Source of the DNA: Ruditapes philippinarum
Lineage: Eukaryota
DNA: 64,000 nt
Direction: 5' to 3'
NCBI RefSeq assembly: GCF_026571515.1
Contig: NW_026853342.1
Location: 186,001 to 250,000, forward strand
Part shown: positions 5,930-40,100 of the stretch, piece after piece
Position numbering within the stretch: position 1 is the stretch's first letter
Layout of the letters: each line of letters starts with the position of its first letter
Position numbers and translations under genes: made by a program
The notes under the pieces: generated by a model
The model's input: only the letters and a program-made list of their open reading frames with translations
Told to the model about the DNA's origin: nothing
The model's database searches: none

Positions 5930-6175
5930 ACGAAATATTATATTTATTAAAAAAGAATTCATTCGAGACAAACCTTTTTTGGCCGTTGCTGGGTAAATTT
6001 TGAGTTTTCTATTTGTTGTTTTGATTGCAAACTATCTGATTGAAACCTAATTTGTACATCATATTTCACTTGTGGCTACAGCGACTAGTGAAATGTTTAT
6101 TTTCATATCACTCAATGAAAATAAAAACTGTATTTAAAGAAAAAAAATATCTCTGAGAACGAAAAGCGCGAAACA

Positions 6176-6675: not shown

Positions 6676-7479
6676 GGCCGGATGGAGTACGATATGCTTT
6701 TGATCGATATAGACATTTTGTACTCTGAAAATGAAAAAGCGGTTATATGGGGTTTGATATGCATTTGGTATGCTAATTTCTACTCTGGAAATGAAAACGA
6801 GGCTTATCTTAAAAAAATCTTATCCCGACCGATCATTATTTCTATTGAAACATCACGTGGTTCAAACGCTTTAAGTTGATTGGTTATGCCATGAATTTTC
6901 GCGAGTTACATAAAAGTTAATTCACCAAGGACAATAGTCCTTATATCGACCTTTATATTTTTTTAATTAGATCGCTAACCACCAGAATATGTTGAGCAAA
7001 TATGAAATAAAAGTGCGACTACCCGTGCCTTTTGAAAATACAAATATTTAATTTCAACGGACTTTTTATCAACTGTTTTTGTCAATATTGTTTTTATATT
7101 ATGACGTTATTAGTTTGAATAACAATGACAAATTAATACGCGTGTGACAAGTACAGTGTTTACATTGAACAAAACAAAACAAAAAAAAGGTTTCTTTTCC
7201 CGGAACGAATATGAATTTGTAATAGATATAAAAGGATGAAAGAATACGTACGTGTTTAAACAGCAAGACTTGAGTAATTATGAATAAAACAAATATGCAC
7301 AAGGTAAATTAGGCGTTAATAAGCAAATATAGTATATTGAGATATTGAACAATAGAAGACATTCAAATTTGAATGATTAAATTTGTTGATTTAAGTAACT
7401 TTACTTTATTTAATTCGATGGTCAGTGTAATGTTCAATCTAGCCTTGTAATTTAAGATCCCACAACGTGCTTAATTTTC

Positions 7480-10400
7480 ATGATAAAAATGAACATGATA
7501 TTAAAAGGTAAGTAGTTTTTCTGAATTGTTCATATTTCAATCATATTTTGTTTTTCTTCCGTATTTTTCAATATAAATCACATTGACATCAAATTTATTG
7601 ACGAATTTTATGGAAAAAAGGTTAGGCTCATTTTAGCATACTGGCAATTTAGAAACAAAACACAAGCATATCGATGAAAATATTTCTGTCAAATTGACAT
7701 GGATTATTATTATCCATACCGACAAAATTAAAAACTTTTCGACAACATTTCTAGCACATTGATAATATTACTAGTACATGGGCGACAATAGACTATTTTT
7801 ACAATATGATATTTCCATAGAAACGGAAGTAGCATTTCGCGCATGCCCAAAAAAGCATTAACGCTAGAATACATTTTATCAGTATTTAAAAATTCTATTA
7901 TCAAATTGATATAATCTAAAAGATGAAACATAAGTTTAGAATAATTTATTTTTCATTTTAAAAATGTAACAAAATTCGTAAAATTTTAAAGAAGCATTTT
8001 TCAACAAGAACAATCTTACTATATGATCTGTTAACGTTGTGAATGAAAGTGCGTGTCGTTAAGAGGCAAAAATCAGTAAAAATGACTTTAAGCTTATAAA
8101 AACATTAAATAAATCATGTAAATAGGAGATTTGTTCATTTTGTATGTAATATCAAAATACATACTACTTGAAAACACCAGCTCTTATGCTTTCAAGATTT
8201 GCTCATATTTATATAAAAACAAATTGTGTTGCCCTAGAATAATAAAACTCGTCATAATAATTATAAAATATTTCAGTGCTCAGCGTCGGAATATTTCTTC
8301 CAATTGTCGCGTATTCTCTGACACAGCTATCGGACAGATTCCGGACAGAATATGTCTGTGACATGGACTATGGACAGATTATAGAGGAGACCGGTAAACG
8401 CAGTGTATTGTCTTGCGGAGGAACATGTTCCCGGAGAACGGACTGTCGATCCTTTGTTTTCAATCCTCAGGACAAGATGTGCCGATTGAACTCCCAGATT
8501 CTCCTTTTTCCGACCTACGGATGTCCCGTCGTAGTCAAATATGTGAGTAAAACAACGTTTTATTTAAAGGGACTCCACTTAGGTATTTTTTACATGACAG
8601 GACTGGAAATACTTTTTCGACAAAAATGTTCCATTTGATGTAGATCGAGACCATTAACTTGTGTGGAAAATTTCAGATCATTCGCTTACTCTGTTTTTCC
8701 CAAAATAATTATTTTAATTATGAAAAATGACCCAAATTTTTAAAGCGTTGCAACGCTTTTCACTCCAATCGGGCTAAAAATAGCACAAAAATATAATTTT
8801 CAATTAATTTCTTAGCATATTTCGTAATTATCTTTGCATATATTTCAAATGTAAGGCCATGATCTATGTAAGAAATTAAGAAATTAAAATTTTGTATTTT
8901 TTCTATACTTTTACACCTCAGTTGAGTTCCTTTAAATATAAAATATGACATTTGTTTAAATTGATATAACATTCAGCGTTTGAAGCACGTGATGCTGCAA
9001 TAGAATTCATTATTGGATCCAATCTTATCAATTTAGCCTCGTATTCATTTCCAAAATCCAAAACATACATATCAAATGCATATCATACCTAATATAGCCA
9101 TATTTTCATTGTCAGATTCAGAAATAATGCATATCGTACTTCCTCTAGCTTCATTTTCATTTTTCAGGGTCAAAAATTCATATCATTCACGTATTGTACC
9201 CTTAGTAACAAAGTTCTGTCAAAAAATGTGAAATCAATGGGTCATTATACATTGTTGGCAACAATACTGCTTAAATTGGACTCGTACACAGCTGTAAAAC
9301 CTATATCTGACTCGACTCATTGTCCAATAAACGATTTCGTCAAATAGAATCCAGTATTACACTCAACAGCGGATAATAACTTCATGAATAAAACATGATT
9401 GTAAATCATGATATCTTTTGAGTACGTTTGGTATATTAACGTTTTATATTTGCGATTTGACTGAATTTAGTTAAAAAGTAGTCCGGCAAGTTACCAGTCA
9501 GTGAAAATACGGAAAATTTGTTTCACAGCGCGAAACATGAATTTTTACAGTGAAAATACGGAAAATCAAAATACGCACTTTATTTCATCAATCAATATTT
9601 TATTTATATAAAGGATATTTGTTTAGTTCAGTGTAAGATCGGGACATTTTTCACCGAGTGAGCACCAAAAGGTATATTTCACGAGTTGCGCAGCCTGGAG
9701 TGAAATATGAACTTTTTGTATTCACGAGATGAAATATATTCCGATCTCACAATAAAGCAAACAATTTTTTTATTATATGCAAACAAACGTTTAAAAAGAC
9801 ATTTTAACCTAATGCTAAATGAAAACCGAACCAAACAATAATACAACGATGTCAAGTCAGTAAGTTGGTTTCCAGTACTGTGAACGCTAGTATTTCTCTG
9901 AAACAACGTGACGGGCTTAAATTTAAAACTGTGAAATATATCAAATTGATAATTTCACTGTTTCAAACAGTGAAAATATCAGGTTTTTATTTCACTGATA
10001 TATTCTATAAACCACCGAAAAGCATCTGATAAATGCATATAATGATATGGTTTATTTAAATCTAATAACATTTTTATTTTCAAAACAAAAAAAATTCAAG
10101 TATTCAATGTATATTACATTTCGTTGATAGCATGCTTGTTTGAAACTCATTAGACCAAATAGAAATTAGGAGTGATGCCAGTCTTTCTCTAGGGTTACTT
10201 TTTGGCTTCAAATCCCGGATTGACAACACCACCACCATTTGTAGGGAAAATTGTTGGCGAATCATGCGTTGATAGCGCAAGAGTGCGTAGGAAAATTTTA
10301 CAGAATGCAGTGTAACTGACGTGTGTATGTGCCTGCCAGGATATGTCTACGATTATACAAAACCGCACATGTATTTTCATAATGGGTAAATTGGCATTTA

Positions 10401-13400
10401 TTTCTTTAAAATCTTATTTAAAAAAATCGGAGAACCTCTTGGCAATGATAATAATTTATATTAAAAGGTGTATTCAACTTCAGCTTAAAAGAAGATAACC
10501 TGTGTTGAAAAGAGTATTGTGTGACCTTAAGGTAGTCTTACTGTAATGCTTTCCCGCCAAAGAAATTCTAACATCGGTCAATATCGTTAGCAAATCGGTT
10601 ATTTCCGGAACATTATTTTCAAAATCATGGGCTAAGATTATTTACAATCACTCATCCTTTTATCGCTATGTATGGTTATAAACGGTTAAGGATTTTTGCA
10701 TGCCGAAATATTGTTATTATAAGAATAACGTTCCGGAAATGACCTATTTTTACGATATTGGACGATGCTGCAATTTTTAGGCGGGAAAGCATTAAAACGA
10801 AATATTATATTTATCAAAAAAGAATTCATTCTAGACAAACCTTTTTTGGCCGTTGCTGGGTAAATTTTGAGTTTTCTATTTGTTGTTTTGATTGCAAACT
10901 ATCTGATTGAAACCTAATTTGTACATATAATTAATCACTCGGGCCTATTTGCTTTCGAGAATACACACTTGCGCATTTGAATCCGAACAGTGCATAAATT
11001 TTACAACAATGCACTTAAAATGTATATCTATTTAATTTCTTATTTTATAGACTGTCCAGCGTATGGAATTACGTTTCAGATGTGTCAGTAACGACCGAAT
11101 ACAGGCTCATTGTGGACATTTCTAAACAACGTGACGGAGGACGAATGTAGAGCTATATTTTGACCACTAACACAATTCACATGCCGTATATTTGAGTTCA
11201 GCTATAAGAGATATGGAATGTAAAGTTTTTTCCTTAGACACAATTCCGACAACAAACATAATTGATGGATTACGAACAAAGAGTACGAAATTTTTTGTCT
11301 ACGCACGTGACTGTGCACTTCGGCTACGACCATGTTTTACGGCATGTGACGTCAACAGTGATTGTTTGGAACGTGATTCGGTGTGCTTTCAGGGTATTTG
11401 TCTCTGTAGGGTTGGCTTCAGCTATGATTCCGAGCAGAGGAAATGTGTTTCAGGTACATTACTTACACTATATGTACTCTTTTCAGTTTCAGCCATTTTT
11501 TTTGTTGTTATTGTTGTTTTTGTTGATGTTGTTGTTGTTTGTTGTTTTTACCCAATCAATGATTACTGCGCAAATTCTGATGATTATTATTCATGACCAG
11601 GAAAAAGATCATATTATTCATTTAACGATGGTGGCAATATGGCTTGAGTTAGATACAAATAATATTATTGAAAATTAAAACATTATACGCGGTAAAAACA
11701 AGAGAACATTTCCTTTAAAATGTTAGCCCGCATACAAAAGGTCATTGTTCATAAATATCAGCTGATGTTTATATACACCAACATTTTTTATAGTTTTATT
11801 TTTTAATTGAAAAGGTACAGACCATCCTGCTGTCAAATTCCCATTACCTTTTTTCTATAATTGTTTTTTTCTTTTAGAGAATGATCTTATTTGGTAACTA
11901 AAATAAATAGATGTTCTACTGTTTTAATTGATGTGTTTTATAAATATGCCGTTTGATGTCCAACATATGAATGTTGTGCGAAGAATAATAATTCAGAGAT
12001 TATTGCTGTGTAACATAATTATGAATAAAAAATATATTTCAATTGAGATAAGGAACAAAACGCATCAGTTTTTTTATGTGATAATTGCATAGCCGTGCCG
12101 ATTTTGCGACTCCGTAAAAATGGTATTGCACAACCGTGCATATATTTCGACGTGACGTCATTTGCGTTGTATATAATAAAAAAATAGCGTTAAAACGCGC
12201 TATTTGTTAGCGTTACAGTATAGGCGCGTCATTGGAAAAAAAGATTTTTTTCCAATTTAAACACTCTTTCTTTTTTTGGTATGTGATAAATAGAATATTA
12301 AATTCGTGTAAGTTCATTACTGAATTTATTGAACTCGTTGAATAGAATAATAATAAGCTCGCCAGAAAGGCTGGCATAATATAATTTTATTCAACAAGTT
12401 CAATAAATTCAGTATCGAACCTAATACACTCATGTATGCAATTATAAAAAATGTGATAAATGGTTTTAAATATTTTACCTTTGCTTAAATTCCAGAATGC
12501 TTTCTTTACTCGAAACCAATGACTGGAAACTCTTACCAAAGGATATCCGGGATATACATAACACACTTCAATTTCTCTAGAACATATTCCGTTCAAAATG
12601 GTGCGGAATGCCTGAATTATTGTACGTCGGATACCAACATCAGTTGTGTAAGCCTAATGACAGACACGATTTCCTCCACGTGCTTCCTGTCGGAACAAAC
12701 GCTCGGTGTATACCCAGATTCTAGCTTCGTGACAAATTTTGCCTACACTATTGTACAGTTGGACTGCGAGCCAATGACCTCACCCATCGAAATGATCCCG
12801 TGCTATGGGAATGTGTGTTCCGCTACCAACAGCGAATGTCGCGACAGTGTCTGCAAATGTGTAAAAGGCTTACGCTACCAAGCATCTCTAGACCAATGCA
12901 CTGAAAGTAAGTACAATCAAATTGTATTACATGTCGCTTATATACTTACTTCAATTGCAAAAGTTATCAAACGACATTATGCACGGCCATTTTGAACAAA
13001 TATTAGTATCCAGCTTTATTTGTCATCCAATGAAAATGCTTCATTTCTTAAACATTCTGTGTGTTTATTTTCATAGAAGAACAAATATCGATACCAAGTC
13101 CGATAATAGTGAACACTAAAGATGATCATTATATAAATATTAAGTGTCATTAAAAAAAATGGCATTTTTTTTACCAACTTTTCATGACCTGTTAAAGGGA
13201 ACGCAGCTTCCCATACATAGTTTATTCATTCTTTTATTCAAATTAAACATAGATCTACTCAGTAAGAATTTCATATATTTCAATAAATGTCTGTGATTAA
13301 AATATTTTACTCAAAGATGAGCATAGTATATCTTTAAATAAAAAAGATATAAGTTAGTAAATTTACATTTTATCAAGATCAGATAGTCTCTACCATATTG

Positions 13401-13804
13401 TAGGATTAATTTTTTTTTATATATTTTGTCGTTGTTGTGTTTTGTTGTTGTTGTTTTTGTTTGTTTTTTTAAGCAAAAAAAAACAACAATTTCTTAAAAC
13501 TACTATTAATATAACGATAACTATAATTTCAGTATGTACAGGAATGTACGGAAACACCTTCCAGACCATCCTTGATTTCCATGTCGATAAACACAACGAC
13601 GTCACTTTAATAATGACGTCAAATGACGTCATCAATGAATGCAAGGCTGCGTGTGTGAAAGAGGACAGTTTTGTTTGTTTAATGGCAGAGATAAACTTCG
13701 AAACAAATGAATGCACATTGTCGTCTAAAGCCTACACGCAAATATCGACAGGTTATTATCTTACAGATATTAACTACGTCACAATGATTAGAGATTGTGC
13801 TTAA
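7480..13804 (+). CDS. Secreted multi-PAN/apple and EB-like repeat protein (PAN-EB x3 + PAN); exons 3-4 disrupted in this assembly
   Basis: Exons 7480-7507, 8277-8542, 10193-10385, 11051-11453, 12496-12906 and 13533-13804 (TAA). Repeated CxxxC...C..h.h...C.L PAN patterns alternate with six-Cys modules. Exons 3 and 4 carry indels and stops (pseudogenisation or sequence error). Confidence 0.7.
12075..12445 (-). mobile_element. Non-autonomous element with a large one-sided palindrome (same family as 19408-19770)
   Basis: Palindrome GAATTTATTGAACTCGTTGAATA...TATTCAACAAGTTCAATAAATTC plus TATGTGATAA motifs; reverse complement of the copy at 19.4 kb. Confidence 0.6.
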
Positions 13805-22392: not shown

Positions 22393-24097
22393 ATGATACC
22401 AGTTTATCGCACTTTTATGTGTAATATGATATCAGTTTATACCACTTTTATTTATAATATGATATCAGTTTATACCACCTTTATGTGCAATATGATACCA
22501 GTTTATACCACTTTTATGTGTAATATTGATACCAGTTTATACCACTTTTATGTGCAATATGATACCAGTTTATACCACTTTTATGTGCAATATGATACCA
22601 GTTTATACCACTTTTATGTGCAATATGATACCAGTTTATACCACTTTAATGTGCAATATGATACCAGTTTATACCACCTTTATGTGCAATATGATACCAG
22701 TTTATACCACTTTTATGTGCAATATGATACCAGTTTAAACCACTTTTATGTGCAATATGATACCAGTTTATACCACTTTTATGTGCAATATGATACCAGT
22801 GTATACCACTTTTATGTGTAATATGATACCAGTGTATACCACTTTTATGTGCAATATGATACCAGTGTATACCACTTTTATGTGTGATATGATACCAGTT
22901 TATATTAATTTTATGTGTAATATGATACCAGTTCATACCACTTGTATGCGTAATATGATACCAGTTTATACCACCTTTATGTGTAATATGATACCAGTTT
23001 ATACCACTTTTATGTGTAACATGATACAAGTTTATACCACTTTTATGTGTAACATGATACCAGTTTATACCACTTTTATGTGTAATATGATATCACTTTA
23101 TACCACTTGTATGTGTAATATGATACCAGTTTATACCACTTTTATGTGTAATATGATACCAGTTTATACCACTTTTATGCGTAATATGATACCAGTTTAT
23201 ACCACTTTTATGCGTAATATGATACCAGTTTATGCCACTTGTATGTGTAATATGATACAAGTGTATACCACTTTTATGCGTAATATGATACCAGTTTATA
23301 CCACTTTTATGTGTAATATGATACCAGTTTATACCACTTTTATGTGTAACATGATACCAGTTTATACCACTTTTATGTGTAATATGATATCACTTTATAC
23401 CACTTGTATGTGTAACATGATACCAGTTTATACCTCTTTTATGTGTTATGTGATACCAGTTCATACCACCTTTGTGTGTAATATAATACCAGTTTATACC
23501 ACTTTAATGCGAAATATATTACCAGTTTATACCACTTTTATGTGTAATATGATACCAGTTTATACCACTTTTATGTGTAATATGATACCAGTTTTAACCA
23601 CTTTTATGTGTAATATGATACCAGTTTATACCACTTTTATGTGTAATATGATACCAGTTTATACCACTTTTATGTGTAATATGATACCAGTGTATACCAC
23701 TTTTATGTGTAATATGATACCAGTGTATACCACTTTTATGTGTAATATGATACCAGTTTAAACCAATTTTATGTGTAATATGATACCAGTTTATACCACT
23801 TTTATGTGTAATATGATACCAGTTTATACCACTTTTATGCGTAATATGATACCAGTTTATGCCACTTGTATGTGTAATATGATACCAGTTTATACCACTT
23901 TTATGTGTAATATGATATCAGTTTATACCACTTGTATGTGTAATATGATACCAGTTTATACCACTTTAATGTGTTATATGATACCAGTTTATATCACTTT
24001 TATGTGTAATATGCCACTTTTATGTGTAATATGATACCAGTTTATACAACATTTATGTGTAATATGATACCAGTTTATACAACATTTATATGTAATA
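22393..24097. repeat. 33-bp minisatellite (ATGATACCAGTTTATACCACTTTTATGTGTAAT)
   Basis: About 50 tandem units; accounts for the repetitive MCNMIPVYTTF ORFs. Confidence 0.95.
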
Positions 24098-24306
24098 TTT
24101 GGACAGAATTTTGTATATTGTGCTAAGCTATATTTGACTAGGAGGGGACTTAATCTAATGTTTCTAGAACTTGTTGCCCAAACCATTTGCTTTTTGCTAT
24201 ACACTCATCATTTGTGTAATATCTTGCATGTATTTGATACAATAAATAAACTATGTTTAAACTAAACTTAGCTATATTTGATACAAATTACGACAAGTTG
24301 CGTGAA

Positions 24307-27300
24307 ATGGGACGTATCGCAAGAATGTTGTTGTTGTTGTTGTTGGCCTGCTATATAACATATGGAGGAGCTTTCTTTACCAGTAAGTACCTCACACCAG
24401 ATTAATACAATATCTTTATAGTTCTTTGTTTGCGAGTTCAAGTAATAAATTTTTGTTCAAAACTTTAATGTAAAGTAATTTTAGAAGTCCACTTTGCACA
24501 AAATATTAAGTAAGATGATGTAATTTCTACAACTTGATGCCTATATATGTCACATTTATTGACTTCTTTGCATGTCACACTATTTGTCACATATATGTCA
24601 CATTTATTGGTTTATCTCAACATGTCACCCAAGCTCGCTCGAAAGATATGATCATTCATTTTGGCAGCAGCAGCTTATTTTTCTCCATGATGCATAAAAA
24701 ATGCTCTCCTTGATCTCTCGTACATCATATTGGTAAACATCACAAAAAATCAACTTGCATACATATTAAGTATAATTCAGTGAATAACTGTATTCAAAAT
24801 GTATAGGTGACATTTAAGGATATGAAACAAGGGACGTCATTCATGTGAATATGATTAGATAACTCCAGTCTAACTAGCTTGACAAAAAGTATGTATTGTA
24901 AATAAATAAAAAAAAAACGTTTCATATAAATATAAATATAATAACACAATAAATTGTTATCAATTTTATTTTAAGTACTTCTGATATACGTTGCCAAATT
25001 CGACTGAACTTAAAAAAAAACAGTCGGAAATTTTTTACTCGTATATAGTGAAAACAATGGCCTAAAATGGCATTGTGATCTTTTTCTCTGTCAAGTTGAG
25101 CTGAATTAATTTCAAAAGATGGATTATTGTATTAGTAATTGACCAATTAGAAATAAAAACCATTTACTATGTTTGTGATATAATATAAAAGGGCATAAAT
25201 AATATAAAGACTGCCCCACTTTTTTTAAGAATTGAAAGTTACCGGTACATTCTAAACGTTATTTATAAATATTTTCTTCAGTCATATGAATTATTGGTTA
25301 TATTTTTCATAGTAAAATATAAAGTTGAATATCATGACTGCAAAATGTCAGGTTATTTTTAATTTTACATGTTCGGTGATCATTAACACTTAAATGGACA
25401 TTTCTTATATCACTTTTAATTAACAATGAAGATTTGCTATACATGTATTTAAGATCTCACTTTCCCGGGCAAACATACATTATGTTTAAAGCTGCATGCC
25501 TCCGGTTGAACTAAAATATTTCACGAAAATCAGACTTGAAAAAAAAGAACTGAGATTTTAAGGAAAGTAAAAAGATTGAAAATAAAAGTAAAAATGTTTA
25601 TGTTATGTGCGATTTATAATCGATTTTGCAGTATTTTTCACCATATTTCTACTGCGTTACTAACTCATTAAGGGCTATATTTTGTATATTTCGACCTCAT
25701 AATTTACATAGATTGTAAGTGCTGTTCGCAATGTAAAAATAATTTATTTGTTCACGTCACAATACTTTACTTTATTATTTATTTTCATTTTTTTTATGTA
25801 AATAAGCACGAATCTGGAGGCGTGCTGCTTTAAAGCTATCGGAGAATTATATGTATTCTAATTATTTATTTCTTCCTTTCTGACGAACAGATGTACAGAA
25901 GAGGTTCAACGGTGAATTGTTACCGGCCGATCCGCTCGTGTGTACAACACAGAATGTTACTTTCACATGTGTACTGAACGACGACCCAGTATCGAACTTT
26001 TCCATTGGCTTTACCTTTAAAACTAGAGAAACAAATGGAAAATTTGTTACTGTAGATCAGAATAGAGTCACACATATAAACGAGACGATGGCTCAATATA
26101 CGGTGACCTCTATCCCGCCTCTTTCGGATGTCAACAAGCCCTACTTCATGTATGTTAAAAGCTTTTACTGGCAAGAAATCGGCGATATTAATGAAACATT
26201 ACAGCTTGGAACCACCACTTCAGTTCGTGTTTACCGTAAGTTCGTATTTTCCAAGTTCGAGTTTACCAAGTTCGAGTTTACCGTAAATTCGTATTTTCCA
26301 AGTTCGAGTTTATCAAGTTCGAGTTTACCGTAAGTTCGTGTCAACCGTAAGTTATGATACATTTTTGTATATGTTATCAACTACATTGTCAACCATAGGC
26401 GCAATACGTGTAGGAAACAATACGTTATCCCTGATTTGAAGATATGCCAACAACAAAAACACGTCATTTAAGCTACGCCTGATAAAGTAAAAACTTCCAA
26501 AAGAACTATTCGTACTTTTTTTTTTTTTCAAAAAGTATGTCCACCTATGAAGAATAACAAAAAGTTACTGAGTAGGTTTTTGTAGAATTTTGATTACGAA
26601 TACACTAAATTTGCTACCTTTATAGAACATCACTTTGAACGATAAATGCAATAAAAGAAAAAGAAAAAGAAGTCAAAAGATTACTTAAAGGATTGCGAAA
26701 ATGCGTCCCTTTTCCTTACATATATAATTCGCTTATTGTTGCGGCTAATAGATTGTCAACAAACTTATTCTATATGAAAACACATAAATTTGAGAAAAGA
26801 AAATTCAAAAGAAAAAAATAAAGGAAAAGTAACACTAACAACAAAAAGATAAAAGAACATTTTAAACCACATTTGCTTGGTCTTATAAGGGTACAAAAAT
26901 ACAAAATAATTACAAAATTAATTCATTTTTTTCAGCAATGCCCGAAGAGGTGAAAGATTTTGCCTGTATCGTGAATAATTACAAGACGATGATTTGCTCC
27001 TGGAAGTACGGGACAGATTACGGCAATTACATGCCGGAAGTCATCTTTTTGTGGTAAATATTTTTAGCTGCATGGCCCAATGGTTACCATGTCGGATTAG
27101 TAATTAAAGGATTTCGCGTGGATTCAAACCCCTTGAGCTAGAAACTTTACACTCATTGCTAAGTACTGGTTGTTTCCAGGAACGGATTCGAGTTTTTAAA
27201 TAAGCTTATAACTTCCTACGCAATCGAATTAAAATAATTCCGTACGTAATAAGTTCATGTATAATAGTAATTTAGTGTTTTGTATGGAAGTCAAAATACT

Positions 27301-30300
27301 GTTTTGTTTACATTTTGCTGATTTTATAACAAATTATTGTACATTAAGCGCTTTTTTATTCAGGTATCAAGCATCTAGCATTCTCCAAATTTATTATAAT
27401 ATTAAACATTATAAAATTAATGTTTGCTTTTTCTAAAGAAGAAATTATTTGTTTGTTTCTGAGGCATAATGTGCGACATTATAAAACTAATGTTTGACCT
27501 TTCTACAGCAGTGATTTTTTTCATTTCGGAGGGATGACGTGCCTTTCATGAATAATTTTAAAAGGAACTCAAAAAAAATTATTAGCCCCCTTACATTATA
27601 ACATTAATGATATGAAGTAAGTTAATAGATAATTATATTAATTTATAAATGTCAATTATACACCATTTTTATATTTAACCAGTGTCTGCTTTATCATCTG
27701 TGACAGTCATTCTTCACTTTTATTCATGGCGATTACTTTTTGCAGGATAAGGCACGAGTGATTTTATAAAGATTTTGTCTTAAGAGTAAAGTTAGGACTA
27801 TTCCTAAGTACAAGAGTTAGGACAGTTTCTTGAAACGCTCCTAAGTTTAGTCTTATGTTTGAGACTTACGATTCTTTATGAAACGCACCCAAGGAGAATA
27901 GTTCATTAAAAAGAGTTTGTTTTTATTTCAGGAGGATCCCATACTACAGTACATCTTGGACCGAATGTAAATACTTAAACACCAAAGATGGGTCCTGCAC
28001 ATGGAATGAAACAAGGGCTGGATATTTCAAAAATTCTAACATCACCATTAGACTGACGTTGAAACAGCGGTGTAAAATTGACGTCACTTCCGAGTTTCAT
28101 ATAGATACGTCAAAAATAGGTTTGTTTACATTATATGTGTTGTACCTACGCATGTATGTTACCCATGTGTTCCATATTCCATCCATAGAAAACATATATT
28201 AATTTATCCAGGGGCTTTTGAGAAATATACTTATGTTAGCAGGTTGTACAGAAGTGGGTGTATTGCATTGTGATACTGTATAGTTATGAAAAATGCATTA
28301 TTTTTGTATATCGAACATTCTAACACTCACGTGATTTTGTCCCTATAGACAAAGAAGGAAAAAACTGGTGTTAAACTGCCAATAAGCACCGGTTAAGGAC
28401 TACTTGTATATGCGCTGTTATGTTTTCATCCTCGATTACATAGTTTACAAAGCATTTTAAAGCAACAATAAAAAACATTTTTATTTATATTTTCAGTTCG
28501 TATAATGTTTTCTTTTCATACAATACCGAAATAGTATCTCACATACACTAACGCCACAATCGTCATATAAGATCCATATATCAGTTAATAAATATTTTGA
28601 CAAAAAGGTATTGTCGTTTTGATGCGACAAAATTAAACACTCAGGCCTACGGCCTACGTGGTCAATTCCTACGCATCAAAACTCCAAACCGGTGTTAAAT
28701 AGCCGATATACACTTCTCAGGCCGATGTTATTTCTTAAGTATTTTTTACTTTTTACACTGGTGCTAGAAAAATCTGTGATGCTTATCATCTGTGCTTATC
28801 ATCGGAACAAAAAGCGCGCAATTACAAGTGATTTGTTACAAATATGCAAAATGTAACCGAAGGAATATTTTGACTTCCATACAAAATAATAAATACCTTT
28901 TAACTTTATTTACTTTAAATACTACAAAAGAATCTAAATAAGGTTCAGCTATTTAGTCAATGACTATTTCTTTGGGCCACTGAATCTGGACACTAAATCT
29001 ATAAAGAGTTTGCCAAATCAAAATATTAGCATTTTGGAGGCTTATTGGCCTTTTACATACAGTAATGCTTTCCCGCCAAAAAAAAAAATCTAACATCGGC
29101 AAATATCGTAAAACATCGGTCATTTCCGTTATTTTTCACAATATTCGGTATTCAATAAGTTTTGACCTTTTATAATAAATATATAGAACATAGCGATAAA
29201 GGAAGAGTGATTGTAATTATTAATCTCATTCCCCGGATTTTGAAAAAAATTACATTCCGGAAATAACCGATTTTCTACGATATTGGCCGATGTTAGAATT
29301 TCTTTGGCGGGATGACTACAATAAATATTTCACTTGTCGTCTGATTCTTAGAAAACTATTTATATAACATACATCCTAGAGTTTATATTTTGACTTCTAC
29401 AAATAGTTATGATAATACATAATGTATCGGGCTGATTCAAATGATACATGTAAATAATATTGATTACATGGAAATCGAACATCTTTCGTCCTCACACATC
29501 AAAAATATGAAGAAGAGTCATCAGGTACTTCAGCAATGATAAAAGTATAAAAGATTAAATATATCCTTAAATGTACACGTCGATTTCTACAAATAGTTTT
29601 ATTATCTGTGTTTTGATATCCGTTTCATATTAAAATTAATTTTCACATCGATATTTGAGCCGCGTCACGACAAAACCAACATAGTGCGTTTGCTACCAGC
29701 ATAGATCCAGACAAGTCTGCGCATCCGCGCAGTCTGACCAGGATCCATGCTGTTCGCTTACCAACTCTATTACAAGTAGAGAAACGGATAGCGAACAGCA
29801 TGGATCCTGATCAGACTGCGCGGATGCATGCTGGTCACAAACCAATTATGTTGGTTTTGTCGTGACACGGCTCATGTATATTTCAGTAAAGCCGGATCCT
29901 GTTTCCAGTATCAGATCTAACGTTATAAGCAGTACTTGTATCACGTTGCTATGGAAGGCCGCAAATTCTGGACCGTTTTATCCGAAAGAACATTTAATTA
30001 CAGTGTCGAGTCGTGGAGTTGCTGTAACTGTACGTAATTTAGTCCATGAATTTGTACGTTTTAGTCCATTTAACTGTAAGTAATAGTCAATGTAACTGTA
30101 CGTTATAGTCCATGTAACTGTACGTAATAGTTCATGTAATTGAATGTAATAGTCCATGTAATTGTACGTTATTGTCCATGTAACTGCGCGTAATAATTTA
30201 TGTAAATGTACGTAATAGTCATGTAACTGTATGTAATAGTTCATGTAATTGTATGTAAAAGTCCAAGTTACTATACGTAATATAGTCCATGTATCTGTAT

Positions 30301-33300
30301 GTAATAGTCCATGTAACTGTATGTAATAGTCCATGTAACTGAACGTTATTGTCCATGTAACTGTTCGTTAAAGTTCATGCACTTGTACGTAAAAGTGCAT
30401 GCAACTGTACGTTTTAGTCCATCTAAGTGTACGTAATTGTCCATGTTACTGTACTTAATAGTCCATGTTACTGAACGCAATAGCTAATTTAACTGTGCAT
30501 AATAGTCAATGGACATGTACGCAATAGTCAATAATACTGTACGTAATAGTCCATATAACTGTACATAATTGTCCAGGTTACTGTACGTTATAGTCCGTGT
30601 AACTGTACGTAATAGTCTATGTAATTGTACGTAATAGTCCATGTAATTGTACGTAATAGTCCATGTAACTGTACGTAATTCTTCATGAAACTGTACGTTA
30701 TAGTCCATGTAACTGTACGTAATAGTCTATGTAATTGTACGTAATAGTCCATGTAATTGTACGTAATAGTCCATGTAACTGTACGTTATAGTCTATGTAA
30801 CTGCACGTAATTGTTCATGTAAGTGAACCGAAAGTCCAAGTAAGTGTACGTAATAGACCATGCAACTGTATGTTATAGTCCATGTAACTGTACGAAATAC
30901 TCCATGTAACTGTACGTAATAGTTTATGTAACTGTACGTAATAGTCCATGTAACTGTACGTAATAGTCCATGCAACCATGTAACTGTACGTTAAAGTCCA
31001 TGTAACTGTACGGTATGTCCATGTAATTGTTCGAAATAGTTCAAGTTACTGTACGTAATTGTCCATGTAACTGTACGTAATAGTTCATGTAACTGAACGT
31101 AATAGTCAATGTAACTGTACGTAATAGTTCATGTAACTGTATGTAATAGTCTTTGTAACTTCACGTCATTTTTAAGTAACTGAACGCAAAAGTTCAAAGA
31201 ACTGTACGTAAGAGTCCATGCAACTGTATGTTATAGTCCATGAAACTGTGGGGTATAGTCCATGTAACTGTACGCAATAGTCCAAGTAACTTTACGTAAT
31301 AGTCCATGCAACTGTATGTAATAGTCCATGTATCTGTACGTAATAGGTCATGGAACTGTACGACTGTACGTATTACTCAAATACAACTGTACGTAATAGT
31401 TTCTGTAACTGTACGTTAAAGTCCATGTAATTGTACGTAATAGTTCATGTAATTGTACGTAATAGTTTATGTTACTGTATGTTATAGTCCATGTAACTGT
31501 ACGTTATAGTCCATGTAACTGTACGTAATAGTTTATTTAACTGTTTGTAAAAGTTCATGTAACTGTACGTTATAGACCATATAACTGTACGTAAAAATTT
31601 TATGTAACTGTACGTAATAGTTCATGTAACTGTACGTTTTAGTCCATGTAATTGTACGTAATAGTCTATGTAAATGTAAATTGATCATGTAACTGAACGC
31701 AATAGTCCAAGTAACTGAACGTAATAGTCCATGCAACTGTACGTTATAGTCCATGTAACTGTACGTAATACTCCATGTATCTGTACGTAATAGTTTATGT
31801 AACTGTACGTAATAGTCCATGTAACTGTACGTAATAGTCCATGCAACAATGTAACTGTACGTTAAAGTCCATGTAACTGTATGTTATAGTCCATGTAAAT
31901 GTACGTAATAGTCCATGTAACTGTACGTAATAGTCCATGCAACTATGTTACTGTACGTTAAAGTCCATGTTACTGTACGTAATAGTCAATGTAACTGTAC
32001 GTTAAAGTTCATGCAACTGTATGTTATAGTCCATGTAAATGTACGTAATACTCCATGTAACTGTACGTAATAGTTAATGTAACTGTACGTAATAGTCCAT
32101 GTAACTGTACGTAATAGTCCATGCAACTACATTTTCGTAATAATTCCATGTAACTGTACGGTATGTCCATGTAACTGTACGCAATAGTCCCAGTAACTGT
32201 ACGTTATAGTCCACGCAATTGTATGTAATAATCCATGTAACTGTAGGATATAGTTTATGTAATTGTACGTAATAGTTTATGTAACTGTATGGAACAGTTC
32301 ATATCACTGTACGTTATAGTCAATGTAACTGTACGTTATAGTCCATGTAACTGTACGTAATAGTTTATGTAACAGTATGTAATAGTTCATGTAACTGTAT
32401 GTTATAGTCCATGTAACTGTACGTAAAAGTTTATGTAACTGTACGTAATAGTTCATGAAACTGTACGTTTTAGTTCATGTAACTGTACGTAATAGTCCAT
32501 GTAAATGTTCGTAATAGTCCATGTAACTGTACGTTATAGTCTACGTAACTGTACATAATAGTCCAGGTAACTGTACGTAATAATCCACGTAACTGTACGT
32601 AATAGTCCATGAAACTGTACGTAATAATCCACTTAACTGTACGTAATAGTTTATGTAAATGTACGTAATAGTTCATGTAACTGTACGTAATACTTCATGA
32701 AACTGTACGTAATAATCCACTTAACTGTACGTAATAGTTTATGTAATTGTACGTAATAGTTCATGTAACTGTACGTAATAGTTCATGAAACTGTACGTTA
32801 TAGTCAATTTTACATTGAAGAAGCCATATTAACTGAATACTTGTAATTTCTCATGAGAGTAGTGTTACTCATAAACCTTGAGAAAGGAACGTGATAAATT
32901 ACATAGTATACATGAAAGAAAAGATGAAAACGTAATTGTTGTATTCTTATTGGGTGGGATAGGTACAGAAAGGGATGGCAATGTCTTATGAAATATAACT
33001 CAATTCAAACGATATGTTATGCTTCAGAAATTCATATCTTAACTATGCTTTAGAAATGTCAAGCATGCGTATAATATTCTAATAATGAATTTAAAGAACG
33101 ATAGATGTTTAACAGCTGAAGAAAGAAGTGCTGAATTTGCAGTACTGTGTCGTTAAAGTAGCAAAATGTAAACAAAGTAGTATTTTGACTTCCATACAAA
33201 ATATTAACTCACTGTAATTATACCAATCGCCAACAGAGAAAAAGAAGAAGAAAAGAGTTCATCTATATGACAAATGAGTATTTTTGAGATTTTTTTTTTT

Positions 33301-36300
33301 TTTTGAAACTGTAACAAGATAACAAAATTAAAAAGAAAGGTTTTAGGAAAACAAATGATAGCATTTTTGAGGCATAATGTGCCTTTAGCTTACTTATATT
33401 TCACATTTCAGAACAGCACGCTAACGACGACAATGGACAGCGAACAATTTGAACACACACATACGTTTTGTGGTCTGCATCCATACACAGCATACAGTTT
33501 TAGCGTTCGCATTAGACCTACTGGTATTTACTCGGGGTACTATAGCGAACCTGTTATACATACGTCCACGACTTATTCCGACAGTAAGTTTGTTTGTTTG
33601 TCTGTTTGATTTTTGGGTTTTCAGTCACACAGACACAGGGTAGGTCATATGGCTTCGTTCCATCCTTACATGTGGAGGAAGACCTTAGGTGCGCTTCCGT
33701 GCATTATTTCAGGCACGAACGGGCACTCGAGAAGAGCCACTGACGTTCCGTAAGCTAGCTGGATAATTTCATCATATGAAAGAATCCAAAGTCCCTGTAG
33801 GGATTCGAACCCACAGCGGTGAGGGGCAGGTGGTTTGAAGTCAACGGCCTTAACCATTCGGGCACGGACTGTTGCTCATACAGTCCTTACTTAGTAACTC
33901 GTGTATTTCATATTTTAAATCATTTTGATGGTCTAGATTTTGGTTACACAAGGTCAAGGTCACTTGTGCGAATAGACTTTTACTATTTAGCTTTTTATTT
34001 CTTACCAATGTCTTAGTAACTTACCTTGGGTGGCCCTATTACCTTTTTTTTAGCAGAAACATCCCTTGATATCGCCCCAGCCAGTGTTATATCCTCGTAA
34101 CTAACTCGTTTCATGTACTATAACTATTTCAAAGCAAACTTATAATTCATTGTCCTTATCTTAAATTGTGACATGAGTAGTTCCAAGTGCAAGTCCCGAT
34201 GTTACAGATTACAGGTGGGACCAAAGAGAATGTGAAGATGGAGGAGAAAAAAGACTGGTGTGTTTGTTTTGGAAGGTAACAAAAATACTATCATGAACTA
34301 GTCTTACTTTATTCTTATTTCTAAGATAATATAATTAGTAGAAGAAAAACGAAACATTATAGTTACATTCTATTATATTGTATCATAGTTTGGGGACCTG
34401 TCTGTTGAAAATGTCAGAGTTAAATCGTATACATATACATGCACAGTGCGTTAACTGGAGTGCAGGTATTAGTAACCCGCACTCCAGAGCATGCCCATTG
34501 ATTGGCTCATATTTGCTGGGGTTTACTAATTGTGACGGCAAAGAAAGGGACAGCGACAGAAATATCATACTCAGATGCTAGTTGATTGGTTACTTTACTT
34601 CTGGGGTTTCATATTGTGACAAAACGGAACGTGTTCTTATGTTTGACTATGATACAAAAGAGAAGGAACATCAAAACACTCGGCAATCTGATTAATACTC
34701 GATGGCTACGCCCTCTCGTACAAATCAGATAGCCTCGTGTTTCGATGCTCTTTCTATTACTTATCACATACCCGTACTATATGGCGATTCCGTAAAAATG
34801 GTATTGCACGATCGTGCATATATTTGGCGTGACGTCTTTTGGGTTATACAATCATAGTGTAAAGACGCGCTAAACTGTAGGCGCGTCAATGAAAATGCAT
34901 GGCCAAAACACGATTTTTGGAGAAGGGGCTTCAGCCTTTTTCTCGGGGAAAATATGCATGACTTTGGCATACTTTGGGAAAAGGGTCTCACTTTTAACAC
35001 AAACTTTTAAGTTCTTCAAAATAGAAAATCAAAGAGCACTGGGAAATACTATAATAAGGCAGTAAAAGACCTTTATTTAACACGGTCATTTAATTTTGTT
35101 GTAAAGTCTATGAGAAATTCCAAAAGACTGATGAATTTTGAGTACCAAACTGGGGAAACAAGAATTTGGTTGGGGAAGCAGCCTATATTCGGTTTTTTGG
35201 CCCTGAATGGTTTAAACTTTTTAAACGGTCTTTATTTTGGTATGACTATTAAATTCGTGTAAGTTAATTTATTGAAATCGTTGAAAAAAACAATATTATG
35301 CTCGCCAGACTTCGTGAAGTTAAAATCGGGAATTCATGGAGCTGAAATCGTGAATTCATAAATTTCGTATGTTGAAAACGTGAATTCACGAAGTTAAAAT
35401 TGTGAATTCATGAAGATTAAATCGGGAATTTATGAAGTTGAAATGGCCGTGTCGGTGTTTTCTAATTCATAGTTTGCTGACTGTTTTTCCAATTCTTTCA
35501 GCCAATAAAAGCGGAGAATCAGAACGGACCAATGAAAGGGCTGCAAGGTGAGTTCACGGCATTACCACCTGCCAATCATATCATCAAAGAGGACTGGGCG
35601 GCGGGAGTGACGTATGGCTGTTCTTATATTCTGTGTAACACGAGTTATCTGTTCACGATAAAAGCAAGAAATATAAATGGTACATCAAAACGAGGCTCAG
35701 CTGTTACCATACCAGCCTTTGTGTCAGGTACTTGCATTTTATTATTTTGATTTTGGTGATGGTTAGTTTAAAAATACATTTTAACATCAGTTTACATAAG
35801 AACAAAGTCTCAGAATTCGTCATTTCACGTCGTTCTGATTTGTTGACTTTCAGTGCTTCTATTTCTAAACTTTTATAAATGTGAATACGAAATGTTTATT
35901 CTACATCAATTTAATGAAAAACAATGAGAACCCATGCTTGGTTTAAGTTTGTCATTTCACATTTGTAGGTTCCATCATAGATGTTGACCATGAACTAAAT
36001 GTTGGACATGCAACTCCAAACAATGTAAGTGACTCTCTTTTTTTTTTTTTTCTTTAATATCTGGATCCTAAAATAACATGACAAACCAACGGTGGAATCA
36101 TTATATTATAAATGCAATTTAATTTTGAGGCCCATTCAATCCCAAAATAAGTTTTTTTTACTCTATATAACTCAAATGCTTTTTTTAATACATTAAAATG
36201 TTTGTTTCAGTTTCCAAAGTACTGATTGGTCGTATATCTTTTTTTTTTAATTCGTGAAGTTATAATGATTTAGTCATTTTTGCTTTTTGCAAAACAAAAT

Positions 36301-37130
36301 ACCACTTTGTTAATGTTTTGCTTATTAAAAAAGAGAAATCATTTCACATTCAATGCTTGGTTTTACACATGGTTATAATCAATCATCCTCTATATTCAAT
36401 ATTTAAACAATAAAAGTCTCCAATTGCCACCAATTCCAGGGGCATTCCCAATATATTAAATGCTATATATAAAATAAGATTATCTCATTTTTCTATCATC
36501 ATCATAAAAACTGATAAAAAATCATTTACATATTGATGGTATAATGATATTTTCCTTCATATGTATATTCACCTATGCACGCCTAGTTGTTTTTTGGCGG
36601 TGCACGACATTTCGTCGAAAGACATCTCGCCGAGTACGATAGTTTGTCGAATATGGCATTTGGTCGAAAGTTAACACTACGACCATTGATCGAAAATAAA
36701 TTTTTATCGCCGTTCTTGAACGGCGATATTTACAATTAACAAGATTTGAACAGTTCTACCTGTACATCGTCTGTCTTTAACCAATCAAAACGAATAATTT
36801 GATATCACATGATAACAAAATGGACGTCAAAAACTTCGGCTTCGCCAGAGAAAAAAACACTTAATGTTATAATGCTTTTTTGTTCTATAGGAACAGAATG
36901 TTCCGCCTGTTGAAGTCACTGGTACAAGTATTAATGGGGAAGCAAGCGGTAATGGACAAGAAGATGACGGTATACCTACATGGGTTGGTTACCTGTTAAA
37001 AGAAATATCTGAAGTAAAACAACAAATGAAAGTTGTCGGCAAACTAGAGTATGCTGTACAAAATATTAGTAACAGAATTAAAGATATTGAGGGAATACTC
37101 AATCGATTCGAAACACGCCAAATGCAGTAA
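24307..37130 (+). CDS. Secreted class I cytokine receptor-like protein (Domeless/gp130-like ectodomain: Ig + cytokine-binding module + FN3) with a C-terminal coiled coil, about 552 aa
   Basis: Ten GT-AG exons join in frame: 24307-24382, 25891-26235, 26936-27053, 27932-28119, 29887-30029, 33412-33583, 34181-34275, 35502-35727, 35969-36024, 36891-37130 (1659 nt). Signal peptide MGRIARMLLLLLLACYITYGG; FACIVNNYKTMICSW (C-x9-CxW); VKPDP; LHPYTAYSFSVRIRP...GYYSEP (degenerate WSxWS); a further FN3. AATAAA at about 37187. Confidence 0.8.
25490..25829. mobile_element. TTAA-flanked MITE (Kolobok-like non-autonomous DNA transposon)
   Basis: TTAA|AGCTGCATGCCTCC...GGAGGCGTGCTGCT|TTAA: TIRs with AG/CT termini and a TTAA target. 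Confidence 0.65.
26224..26352. repeat. Short 15-17 bp tandem repeat overlapping the exon 2 splice donor
   Basis: TTCG(T/A)GTTTACC(GT)AAG is repeated about 8 times, starting inside the exon. Confidence 0.75.
27066..27240 (+). mobile_element. Degenerate tRNA-derived SINE
   Basis: A-box-like TGGCCCAATGG and B-box-like GATTCAAACC, followed by a body CATTGCTAAGTACTGGTTG...GGAACGGATTCGAG. Confidence 0.5.
29656..29874. mobile_element. Palindromic MITE family B (TIR TGAGCCGCGTCACGACAAAACCAAC)
   Basis: Almost entirely self-complementary; other copies at 43343-43579 and (partial) about 45450-45555. Confidence 0.8.
30024..32806. repeat. 22-bp minisatellite (GTAACTGTACGTAATAGTCCAT) beginning at the exon 5 splice donor
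   Basis: A 2.8-kb array of more than 100 units filling most of the intron. Confidence 0.95.
33588..33868 (-). mobile_element. tRNA-derived SINE
   Basis: The minus strand starts with a tRNA-like head (A box TGCCCGAATGG, B box GGGTTCGAATCC), continues with a conserved-looking body and ends in an (AAAC)n tail. Confidence 0.75.
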
Positions 37131-40100
37131 CTATTAACTTGATGGAGATGATAGATGTGACTGTTTATTGAAAATCAACGTACTGCAATAAATGTAATAT
37201 CAGTCCGATGTAAATTTGATGAAACATTTTCTATATAAGCAAAACATGATTTGAAAGTTTATTGTTATATACATGTGGGAATCTTACTCATTGTTAAATT
37301 TGATTCAAAAGGAAATTTTTGGTTGCATGTGCTTTATTATTATTATTTTATAGCGTGCGAGCGTGCGTCCGTGTGTGATTTGTGTGTGGTTTTTTTTTTC
37401 TCTTTATCATTTTATTTGTTTGTTTGATTTTGATACATGTTGTTTCAACGTGATGTTTTGTCTTATTTTGCTAATATCGAACAAAATAGTCGACTGTTAA
37501 ATGACTCAAAATATGTAAATGGTAATGTTACTGGTGTAGAAAAGTGATGAATAAAATTAAAGATATACTGTGCTTTTTTCCTGCCAAAAAATTCTAACAT
37601 CGGCCAATATCGTAAAAAATCGGTCATTTCCGGAACATTATTTTCCACAATTTCCGATATTCAATAATTTTAACCATTTATTATCGCAATTTAGTACATA
37701 GCGATGAAGAATGAGTGATTGTAAATAATCTAATGCTCAAGATTTTTTTTTAAAAGAGTTCCGGAAATATCCGATTTGCAAAGATATTGGCCGATGTTAG
37801 AATGAGCATTACAGAAAGGCTATGCTCAAAAATAAAAAAATAAAAAACATTTATTGCAGAATTTTTTAATTTTTTTTTGAAATCTAGTTTATTCTTTCTG
37901 AATATGTCTAATTTTAAAAAGTGAATTTGTAAACTATGTTTAGGAAGCAGCATTCCTATAACTTGACAAATTAAGTTGGTCTATCCTTATAAAAACTGCC
38001 AGCGTTATTAATGACACTATGTAATCATACGGTGATTACAAGAAATGTGTGTAGAGCTTAAAACGTAAAAAAAATTTTTTTCTTTATTCAAAAAATGTTT
38101 AGGTTACATTTTAAAAGAGACTGTATAGAAATTATCTTTTTTTTTTTTCAAATATCAAATTTAAGCATTATATATCTTTAAGTAGGTCGTCATTTTTTCT
38201 CACAGATCAATGCATTTCTGACTAAATGTAAAACAAAGCTAGAATCTAATTACTTAACATTGCAATAGATATAAAGTTTTGTATTAAAATCACAATCACA
38301 GACGATTAAATCAGAAATAGTTTTTTTAAGTAAGGATTATACAAGGCACTTTTACAAATATCTTTTGATTTATCTTCTATGCTTTTTTACAAGTTCTCTG
38401 TCGTTTTAAAAAAATGCCTTCACTATCTTTTGAATTAATCATTTTATCAACTTTAGACAGATGTTGTTTTGTTTCTTTGTTGTTGTTGTAAGATATATAT
38501 TTAAATCTAGTTATAATGTACCTGTCTTCAATTGTAAATTTGTAATCTATGTGTAAATAACCTATTATTTCAATACTCAATTCCTTATCAATACATTTAA
38601 GAACCTTAAATTGTCTTTTTTTATTTTCCTCGCAAGAATGTAAGTTTACGAATGTTTGCTCATCCGTACAACAATCTGTTGTTTGACGAGTAACAACAGC
38701 ATATAGTCTCAATCGCAACTATTCGGTCCTTTCCGCCAGTCTTCGGATAACGTTATTATGAATAATAGCCGAGGATGTTCCAATCGCAATTCCTTTCGTC
38801 TTTGTGCCATTATTAAAAGAAAACAACAACAAACAAAAAACGTACCCTGTTTGTGCTAGAATAATTATTTTTTCCATTTCCTGTATTTATTTATTTATTT
38901 AAATAGAAGTATCAATGTATTTATGTATATATTTTTCCCCCTTACCCTTTCAGGCCTCAAATAGTGAAAAAATGCTCTATCTAGACCACAGGGAATCGGC
39001 ACAGTGTTGGGATAGTGTAAAAAATTAATTCTAGAAAAAAAACTTATATACTGTATATATAATATATAGACAACGGGTTGAACTCGCCAAATCGGCGGAA
39101 TGCCACTCGACCAGTATAAGTCAAAATTGCAAAGTCATTCTTATGTTAACCATATAAAGCTATATATCAAATTGCAGGTAAATGACATCACTAGACGTTG
39201 ACAATAACATAATTGTCCCCACTTACACCGTTTTTGAACAACAAACAGATATTTCGGATGGAATTTCGTATTTCTGCTAGGTCGGACACGACCGTGCCCC
39301 CACTCGATTTTCTACGTGTAAAAACGCAATTCCAAACCAACACAAATAAAACCAAAACCAAAGTTGTAAATCATCCGCTATTGTAAGAAAGACATTAATT
39401 TCAATGAACAAATATCTTATTTAGGTAAACCATTTTAAATATGAAAGAATAGAAAGAATATGACAGAATATGCAAGAAAAAATATCTGACACATGTTTGC
39501 GGTTCGGATCGAAATATCCGTCCCTCGGGTACCCGACTTTAGGCGGTAACACGGCAAGCCTCGCTACCGCCCAATGGGCTGGGTACCATCAAGACGGATA
39601 TTCCTATCCAAACCGTAACATATTACATTATTCTTGCATAGCAGTCTGGCGTTTCCGTTAGTTTTAACAATGCCTCAAATTTCATCTGGCAGGGGGTGCA
39701 AAATGAGTCGCGCGCTTTACAATGGCGTCATTTTCGAGCATTTTATGAATGTACTGCGTTAAAATGACGTCATTTTTGTGTATGAAAGAAGGGAACTTTG
39801 TGCTTAGAATGTCGTCAGTTCGCCGTTGTTTTTAAAAGTTGTAAATTCTCTGGTATTGTAAGAAATGGATGAAATGATACTCATTTCAATGAACAAATAT
39901 CTTGCTGAGGTAATCCATTTTAGTGATGTAATATTTTGGCAGAATATGCCAAAAAATATCTGACATATACGTGCGGTTCAGATCGAAATATCCGTCCCAC
40001 GGATACCTGCCCATGGGCGGTAACTAGGCAAAAATCTTGTTATTGCCTCCTTTGCCCTCACAAGTAAGATCTTTATATGAACCTATATATATATATAAAG

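Follow-up and report, generated by a model that had tools for sequence, protein, structure and literature searches.

A transcribed gp130-like receptor ectodomain gene of Ruditapes philippinarum whose last two exons were probably captured from a neighbouring Rab gene

How does a gene for a class I cytokine receptor come to end in a coiled coil instead of a transmembrane (TM) segment and a signalling tail, and what might its product do? This question is raised by a ten-exon gene on the forward strand (+) of C1829:186,001-250,000 (contig NW_026853342.1) of Ruditapes philippinarum, taken from a 1.41-Gb assembly of 15,874 contigs; these 64,000 nucleotides are called the window here, and positions are those of the window unless a contig is named. 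The answer developed below is that the gene joins the ectodomain of a gp130-like receptor to two exons that probably came from a Rab GTPase gene nearby, the second of which encodes a coil that probably derives from the open reading frame 1 (ORF1) protein of a long interspersed nuclear element (LINE).

The ten exons join in frame from an ATG at 24307 to a TAA ending at 37130, with AG at all acceptors and GT at all donors, and encode 552 amino acids (aa). The joined translation bears out the layout proposed in an earlier reading of this DNA from its letters alone (the sequence-only reading), namely signal peptide, immunoglobulin-like (Ig) domain, cytokine-binding module, fibronectin type III (FN3) domain and linker; the chain, however, is five residues longer than that reading, which stopped at ...NRFE. 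The sole hydrophobic stretch is N-terminal (Kyte-Doolittle mean of 1.9 for the best segment of 19 residues, at residue 7), in agreement with the claim that the product contains no TM stretch, and secretion of the product is predicted.

The fusion gene is transcribed and spliced. RNA evidence was drawn from seven runs compared with the window, out of 24 listed; X1 and X2 are recorded as RNA, while X4, X7 and X12 are presumed to be RNA; spliced contigs cannot in any case be genomic. The junction evidence covers exons 6-10. The exon 8-9 joint (GT..AG, 241 nucleotides skipped) was present in 4 of 4 runs of one comparison, with one contig per run and at most three studies represented. In record 10 of X2, a single RNA contig, exon 8 takes up bases 1-64, exon 9 bases 65-122 and exon 10 bases 123-572 with nothing between them, which supports the earlier claim that exon 10 is transcribed with the gene and spliced to exons 8 and 9, and in record 28 of X7 exon 10 starts at the identical offset, base 123. 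The exon 9-10 joint is missing from the junction table, where the T-run at 36025-36062 was skipped, and was read from the contig records. Further upstream, exons 6 and 8 lie on one contig in X1 and X12, separated by 100 letters, which is what exon 7 calls for. The 3' untranslated region (UTR; 37131..37726) is covered by record 4 of X1 and records 11-13 of X12, its extent being the reach of the RNA contigs and not necessarily the true 3' end; AATAAA occurs at 37187, 37550 and 37831. Alternative splicing to a TM exon was considered and rejected, as exons 8, 9 and 10 lie on one RNA contig and no remnant of a TM-side exon was detected in the 249 kb of C1829 searched.

The closest paralogue of the receptor part, on contig C5970, is treated here as its parent. 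Besides two further FN3 domains it has a TM exon, with hydropathy 2.9, an exon resembling Box1 and a tail frame of 401 codons; full-length, TM-bearing paralogues, for which a search had been proposed, are thus present in the same genome. In the PDB, its NCBI model (XP_060595782, an IL-6 receptor subunit beta-like protein by name) matched gp130 only: all 10 of 10 sequences were gp130, with a best E of 2e-13 and a match covering aa 34-495. An ectodomain tree groups the window gene with this parent (support 1.0). The earlier assignment to a gp130/Domeless-type ectodomain is upheld by the alignment to the parent and by the parent's gp130-only matches. Judged by homology, exons 1-8 descend from a duplicated full-length gp130-like receptor, and the window gene is a gp130/Domeless-type class I receptor ectodomain and a derived, non-signalling offshoot, because it has no TM segment and no Box1/JAK-binding tail. 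With gp130 (IL6ST)/Domeless-type receptors it shares a predicted signal peptide, the Ig domain, the four-Cys cytokine-binding module and FN3; it differs in having one FN3 domain after the module, no TM, Box1 or tail, and foreign end exons. In the mollusc proteins called IL-6 receptor subunit beta-like, three to four FN3 domains, a TM segment and a tail are the norm, and their survey never uses the word 'soluble' (PMC13203501).

Exon by exon, the receptor part follows the parent. Exon 1 (24307-24382) provides the ATG and the predicted signal peptide (aa 1-25), by hydropathy a basic N-terminus followed by a hydrophobic run, and aligns with a similar N-terminus in the parent. Exon 2 (25891-26235) encodes the Ig-like domain D1 (aa 26-140), 65% identical to the parent exon; its model is all-beta (pLDDT 87.6), with Ig V/I domains as best Foldseek matches. 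The N-half of the cytokine-binding module is formed by exons 3-4 (26936-27053 and 27932-28119), where Cys 151, 161, 192 and 202, with C-x-W, align to those of the parent, which in turn align to gp130's; the matching parent region aligns to gp130 D2. Exons 5-6 (29887-30029 and 33412-33583) form the C-half, in which the WSXWS site is degenerate, the aligned site being one aromatic-Ser pair, and it is equally degenerate in all seven other mollusc receptors aligned, TM-bearing ones included. Exons 7-8 (34181-34275 and 35502-35727) encode FN3 domain D4, the last receptor-derived part, and end in a phase-1 donor placed as in the parent. The protein carries ten N-glycosylation sequons. Pfam searches with individual exons gave no match above curated cut-offs, fn3 on exon 6 (E 9.5e-5) falling under its cut-off and the tail being without any match, and exon 2 as sole query for homologues scored none of 223 candidates.

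Several tandem repeats lie in and around these exons. A short repeat (26222-26339) starts at the exon 2 splice donor and copies the region around it, and a 22-nt satellite of about 126 copies (30023-32805) begins within the last bases of exon 5; both may provide alternative donor sites. A 33-nt repeat of about 49 copies (22393-24098) ends about 200 bases 5' of the ATG.

Across the genome, exon 8 has 11 matches on nine contigs, comprising the window, contig C15550 and nine others. All nine others continue into FN5-type exons, and none shares a contig with matches from the tail search. C15550 is likely the other haplotype of the window locus, with 96% aa identity over exons 5-9 and the same exon order. 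At C15550:16,100-16,420 many small insertions cluster in exon 10, while no exonic indel is listed in the RNA contigs of four runs; these insertions are probably read error, a broken allele being possible. Against the parent, the window gene shows 71% identity over 392 codons and a ratio of nonsynonymous to synonymous substitution (dN/dS) of 0.21 (bootstrap 0.16-0.27), and over 387 codons it has 14 private amino-acid changes against 27 in the parent; outgroup dS is saturated, so no branch-wise dS was derived. Given this low ratio and the smaller number of own changes, codon comparison places the receptor part under purifying selection, with the ectodomain maintained. No remnants of FN5, FN6, TM, Box1 or tail were detected in C1829:96,001-344,826 (249 kb) or in C15550 (best E 0.55), whereas a control contig returned all seven queries. 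Comparison of introns and UTR with the parent and the Rab gene returned weak AT-rich matches only (best E 0.006).

The gp130-like family is expanded in this genome (contigs C13006, C11877, C4752 and C10772 included), with some copies in tandem and others likely haplotypes. The NCBI models of a paralogue on C13883 (P0006, P0025, P0028) stop after the last FN3 domain without a TM segment and may represent a second soluble form or an incomplete model. The parent's sister copy, on C12869, has NCBI isoforms (P0004, P0011) that run on past the end of exon 8, through the intron, to a mildly hydrophobic tail; the read-through point is where the window gene was cut, and a search there for the FN5a exon gave no match.

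The origin of the last two exons can be traced within the same contig. Exon 9 (35969-36024; 56 nt, phase 1 to 0) encodes a linker, and exon 10 (36891-37130) an acidic linker, a coiled coil of about 50 residues (aa 501-550) and the stop. This tail finds its best genome matches in four exons that lie 54-70 kb before the ATG, at C1829:140-157 kb; three of them terminate Rab GTPase genes and the fourth (140.3 kb) is an orphan copy with a changed end. In the nearest of these genes, RabA (minus strand, 50 kb upstream), a phase-1 intron marks the end of the G domain, and two exons remain, one of 56 nt and then a phase-0 one for the coil. Exon 9 equals the penultimate RabA exon in length and phases and is identical at 28 of 56 nt without gaps, a figure reached by 34 of 159,890 offsets in 80 kb. 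Exon 10 aligns with the last RabA exon from its first base (73% nt identity over 165 nt, E 1e-22), and the two coils agree at 27 of 48 residues. In a tree of tails (48 columns, 38 rows), from which two fragments identical to Ruditapes Rab tails and matches without a P-x-W start were omitted, the window tail falls inside the Rab-coil group of nine rows (99/99). Taken together, exons 9 and 10 were likely captured from the neighbouring Rab gene; the direction of transfer is most likely from Rab to receptor, because the short exon completes the last helix region of the Rab and because Rab-coil fusions also occur in Mercenaria mercenaria. Synonymous divergence from the parent (dS 0.82-0.84) and from RabA (0.61, 55 codons) is similar, which would be compatible with one event.

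The donor genes are themselves unusual. The cluster at C1829:140,300-160,700 (L017-L019) comprises a Rab11-like, a Rab1-like and a 'Rab-13-like' gene, each with the coil and a conserved basic end motif in place of the Cys tail. The NCBI models XP_060579696 (Rab-11B-like, with Rab11 as best PDB matches), XP_060579694 and XP_060579697 (Rab-13-like) independently give Rab plus coil. Cys is absent from the last 10 residues in all six Rab-coil proteins, whereas in the canonical Rab11 of the same genome the identical phase-1 intron leads to a tail with a Cys-Cys motif at its end. Counterparts are found in Mercenaria mercenaria (XP_053386909 and XP_053387969; P0033 and P0047), with one more on another contig (P0034). 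In large Rabs the coil precedes the G domain, while the clam Rab coil follows it, replacing the Cys tail. CRACR2a and Rab45 belong to the large Rabs and combine a Rab domain with a coiled coil in a single chain (PMC6504896). The sequences suggest that the Rab-coil proteins are possibly unprenylated trimeric Rabs.

Beyond the Rabs, the coil leads to a retrotransposon. A genome search with the RabA tail gave 30 matches at E <=0.05, five of them local and 25 elsewhere (best of the latter E 7e-7, 42% identity). Seventeen non-local loci were read, 16 from these 25 and one from a search with the window tail; at all 17 a long ORF1 coil begins, with an endonuclease signature downstream at 15, and in five donor-type loci read at length, endonuclease or reverse-transcriptase frames follow ORF1. 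The model of one such ORF1 (pLDDT 84) comprises a coil along with an RNA recognition motif (RRM) and a C-terminal domain (CTD), and all 11 Foldseek matches at E <=0.001 are human LINE-1 ORF1p; searched by sequence, the PDB gave generic coils only and not L1ORF1p, both for one ORF1 and for an ORF1 profile as query. Tails and ORF1 starts align without gaps and have in common a P-x-W start and a 3-3 heptad break. Against a profile of eight ORF1 starts, all five tails exceed shuffles that keep core and non-core positions apart (z 4.7-6.5; window z 5.5, 0/3000), and z remains 2.6-4.5 without P-x-W (window z 3.3, 4/3000); windows from further along the ORF1s' own coils score 16-32 with this profile, compared with 65-89. 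A tail profile run against 1.84 billion representatives gave 46 matches, of which six are Rab-coil proteins, nine carry the ORF1 RRM-CTD (a class assigned by an RRM-CTD-only test), 11 more share the same coil start and the rest are mostly generic repeats. Exon 10 ends after about 50 coil residues, with neither RRM nor CTD, and its stop removes the basic end motif of the Rab coils. The coil of exon 10 therefore likely derives from a LINE ORF1 protein, and a passage from ORF1 to Rab is inferred because the ORF1 family is far more widespread. As for the fusion itself in other species, none of the 46 tail-profile matches has a receptor ectodomain and none of 13 Mercenaria receptor models has a coil, which is weak evidence given that the same libraries missed the window's own protein.

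Structural features of the tail point to self-association. Its core spacing, 3-4-3-3-4-3-4-3-4-3 from tail residue 15, is as previously described, and the R-h-x-x-h-E motif is present at aa 535-540. Beta-branched cores favour trimers, and 7 of the 12 core residues of the window tail are beta-branched; compared with RabA, all 12 core positions are still hydrophobic. Human L1ORF1p trimerises via its coil, which has R-h-x-x-h-E motifs, as defined in the same source, and a stammer (PMC5940361). Folding of the tail as a multimer, suggested earlier as a check, yielded a coiled-coil bundle in the three-copy model, with a score of 0.66 against 0.12 for the best of three controls. The mark for this score was calibrated on two copies only: of proteins solved as pairs, 21 of 30 reach it (17 of 29 in eukaryotes), and no single chain does (0 of 23; in eukaryotes 0 of 30). 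The three-copy runs gave at least 93% contact agreement with pLDDT 79-80, and the chains lie parallel and in register and make the 38-43 contact that R-h-x-x-h-E would predict. On this modelling the product is predicted to trimerise. The sequence-only reading thus holds for the ectodomain, the missing TM, the 8-9-10 splicing, the self-associating coil and the TM-bearing paralogues; it had overlooked the Rab-derived exons and the LINE ORF1p-type coil.

These observations can be arranged into a sequence of events. The first ~48 residues of a LINE ORF1p coil would have become the last exon of Rab genes, displacing the prenylated tail, before Ruditapes and Mercenaria split. Exons 1-8 of a full-length receptor would then have arrived, as a copy, beside the Rab cluster and, as the homologies described above suggest, joined the last two exons of a copy of a Rab11-like gene through a phase-1 intron. 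The resulting fusion is transcribed and spliced, and its receptor part is, by codon comparison, under purifying selection. Its coil is predicted to draw three ectodomains together, and the intact Ig domain and cytokine-binding module may bind the parent's ligand outside the cell without signalling. Since ligand binding with avidity but without signalling would amount to a trap, the favoured interpretation, held with slightly better than even confidence, is that the product is a secreted, pre-oligomerised ligand trap damping JAK/STAT signalling through the full-length paralogue. A broader and more tentative proposal, which we would not yet back at even odds, is that venerid clams domesticated the ORF1p coil start as a portable trimerisation exon, giving first unprenylated trimeric Rabs and then, by local exon capture, a trimeric gp130-like cytokine trap, a high-avidity bait for a mollusc JAK/STAT ligand that is perhaps itself trimeric.

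Several points weigh against this account. Direct support for the exon 9-10 joint comes from one contig, and two sets of raw reads from 2026 (X21 and X23, 4-6% of each run read) gave depths of 0.1-0.3 and 0 over the exon 8 and exon 10 bins and no joint. The placement of RabA as sister of the window tail has weak support (93/37; 48 columns), the window tail sits on a long branch (0.64 vs 0.09 for RabA), and the ORF1-to-Rab direction derives from an unrooted comparison. Coil dN/dS against RabA is 0.50 with a bootstrap interval of 0.21-1.16 over 55 codons, so that purifying selection on the coil is not established, and oligomer modelling covered three copies alone, where a pass may reflect likeness to solved coiled coils. 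The trap role is drawn from sequence and models, and the ligand of mollusc receptors is described as not yet identified (PMC13203501). Class I receptor complexes are two-fold (IL-6 2:2:2; PMC11339341), for which a trimer offers no obvious geometric match. In addition, Drosophila Eye transformer/Latran (Et/Lat) is a short paralogue with a homologous binding module, yet it binds no ligand (PMC4751595).

Four other explanations were weighed against the ligand trap. The product could be a secreted agonist or carrier, its ectodomain presenting a cytokine or microbial pattern to membrane receptors in the style of soluble IL-6 receptor (sIL-6R) trans-signalling or of a composite-cytokine chain, or its coil engaging and clustering the receptor; we consider this unlikely, if the foremost of the four. 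Soluble IL-6R alpha activates gp130 (PMC11339341), the coiled coil of a shrimp lectin binds Domeless and activates JAK/STAT (PMC5645147), cross-linking is suited to multivalency, and the receptor part is conserved; the gene, however, apparently originates from a tall signalling gp130-like chain rather than an alpha chain, and its coil from cytosolic Rabs and a retrotransposon protein with no receptor-binding history. Less probable than this is a passenger coil, with selection keeping a soluble ectodomain to which the Rab exons gave only a stop and a 3' end, the coil now decaying or forming another oligomer. Although the core is hydrophobic throughout, the frame is open in the RNA contigs of all four runs with no exonic indel listed, and the tail still forms a bundle in the three-copy model, the upper limit of the coil dN/dS interval and the long tail branch would fit such a coil, as would the loss of the basic end motif to the stop and the fact that 5 of 9 RNA variants in aa 499-552 change the residue (exonic ones among 40 of 75 variants).

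A dominant-negative partner, which would bind membrane receptor ectodomains rather than ligand and keep them from dimerising, whether within the secretory pathway or on the cell surface, is less probable still. Et/Lat provides the model, being a short JAK/STAT receptor duplicate that inhibits signalling by forming inactive heterodimers with Dome (PMC4751595), and one membrane-proximal FN3 domain is retained in the clam protein. Et/Lat, however, has a membrane anchor and cytosolic domains, of which the window protein has neither, and it has no coil and is not secreted; moreover, two of the three proximal FN3 domains are gone from the window protein, and its binding module has changed less than the parent's. 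Very improbable, and largely refuted already, is an artefact of annotation or assembly, with the true gene spliced to a TM exon some distance away and exons 9-10 being part of a broken Rab copy. The fragmentation of the assembly, the many exon 10 indels on the other-haplotype contig and the failure of protein searches to return the window's own protein would be in keeping with it, and a deeper RNA contig does depart exon 8 at 35720 toward another FN3 exon. This contig, which has 7 mismatches in 59 letters and runs on into the C5970 paralogue, is assigned to another gene; the exon 8-9 joint in 4 of 4 runs, the single contig spanning exons 8-10, the identical exon order on two contigs and the absence of TM-side exons from the 249 kb searched all argue against an artefact.

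For the ligand trap, each ingredient has precedent, short inhibitory paralogues such as Et/Lat among them, and the anatomy and origin of the gene are well supported. Soluble gp130 is an inhibitor, and sgp130Fc is an ectodomain pre-oligomerised by a fused module (PMC8649222); the clam protein resembles both as an anchorless gp130 ectodomain, and the latter in its fused oligomerisation module, but it is the product of a separate gene rather than of shedding or splicing and carries a natural coil, predicted to be a trimer, instead of an Fc dimer. The IFN-gamma binding protein of orthopoxviruses is likewise a secreted ectodomain that sequesters a cytokine and is oligomerised by a borrowed C-terminal TFIIA-like motif (PMC3477310); that protein is viral, class II and a helix-turn-helix tetramer, whereas the clam gene is a host gene, class I, with an ORF1p-type coil. 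LINE ORF1 sequence serves as first or last coding exon of host genes in Lyosin, L1-RFX5, NUP42-L1 and USP4-L1 (PMC12129022), and L1TD1 is an L1 ORF1p-derived gene (PMC4161310). Such vertebrate exons and genes keep coil and RRM, whereas the clam gene keeps the first ~48 coil residues alone, apparently passed on again from Rabs to a secreted protein. No report of the receptor-coil fusion or of Rab-coil genes was found in the literature searched (open PMC papers and bioRxiv, without supplements).

Elsewhere in the window, a Polinton/Maverick-like element occupies 52553-63999 (-), with DNA polymerase B (Pfam E 3e-37), an integrase with chromodomain, a weakly matching A32-like ATPase and two long frames without Pfam match. 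A Cys-rich gene has exons at 4747-13801 (+), with a PAN domain matched at 4747-5118 (Pfam E 2e-6) and a near-duplicate block at 8267-8635.

The locus offers a traceable three-source gene, assembled from receptor, Rab and retrotransposon sequence, with donors still in the same genome and one of them 50 kb away. If the proposed account is true, a LINE ORF1p coil would have been reused twice purely as an oligomerisation tag, in the cytosol and outside the cell, akin to engineered Fc or zipper fusions. The Rab-coil genes without prenylation Cys constitute a second unexplained family deserving study. Few cytokine ligands of invertebrate gp130-like receptors are known, and a natural soluble, multivalent ectodomain would provide a direct bait for one in a farmed clam.

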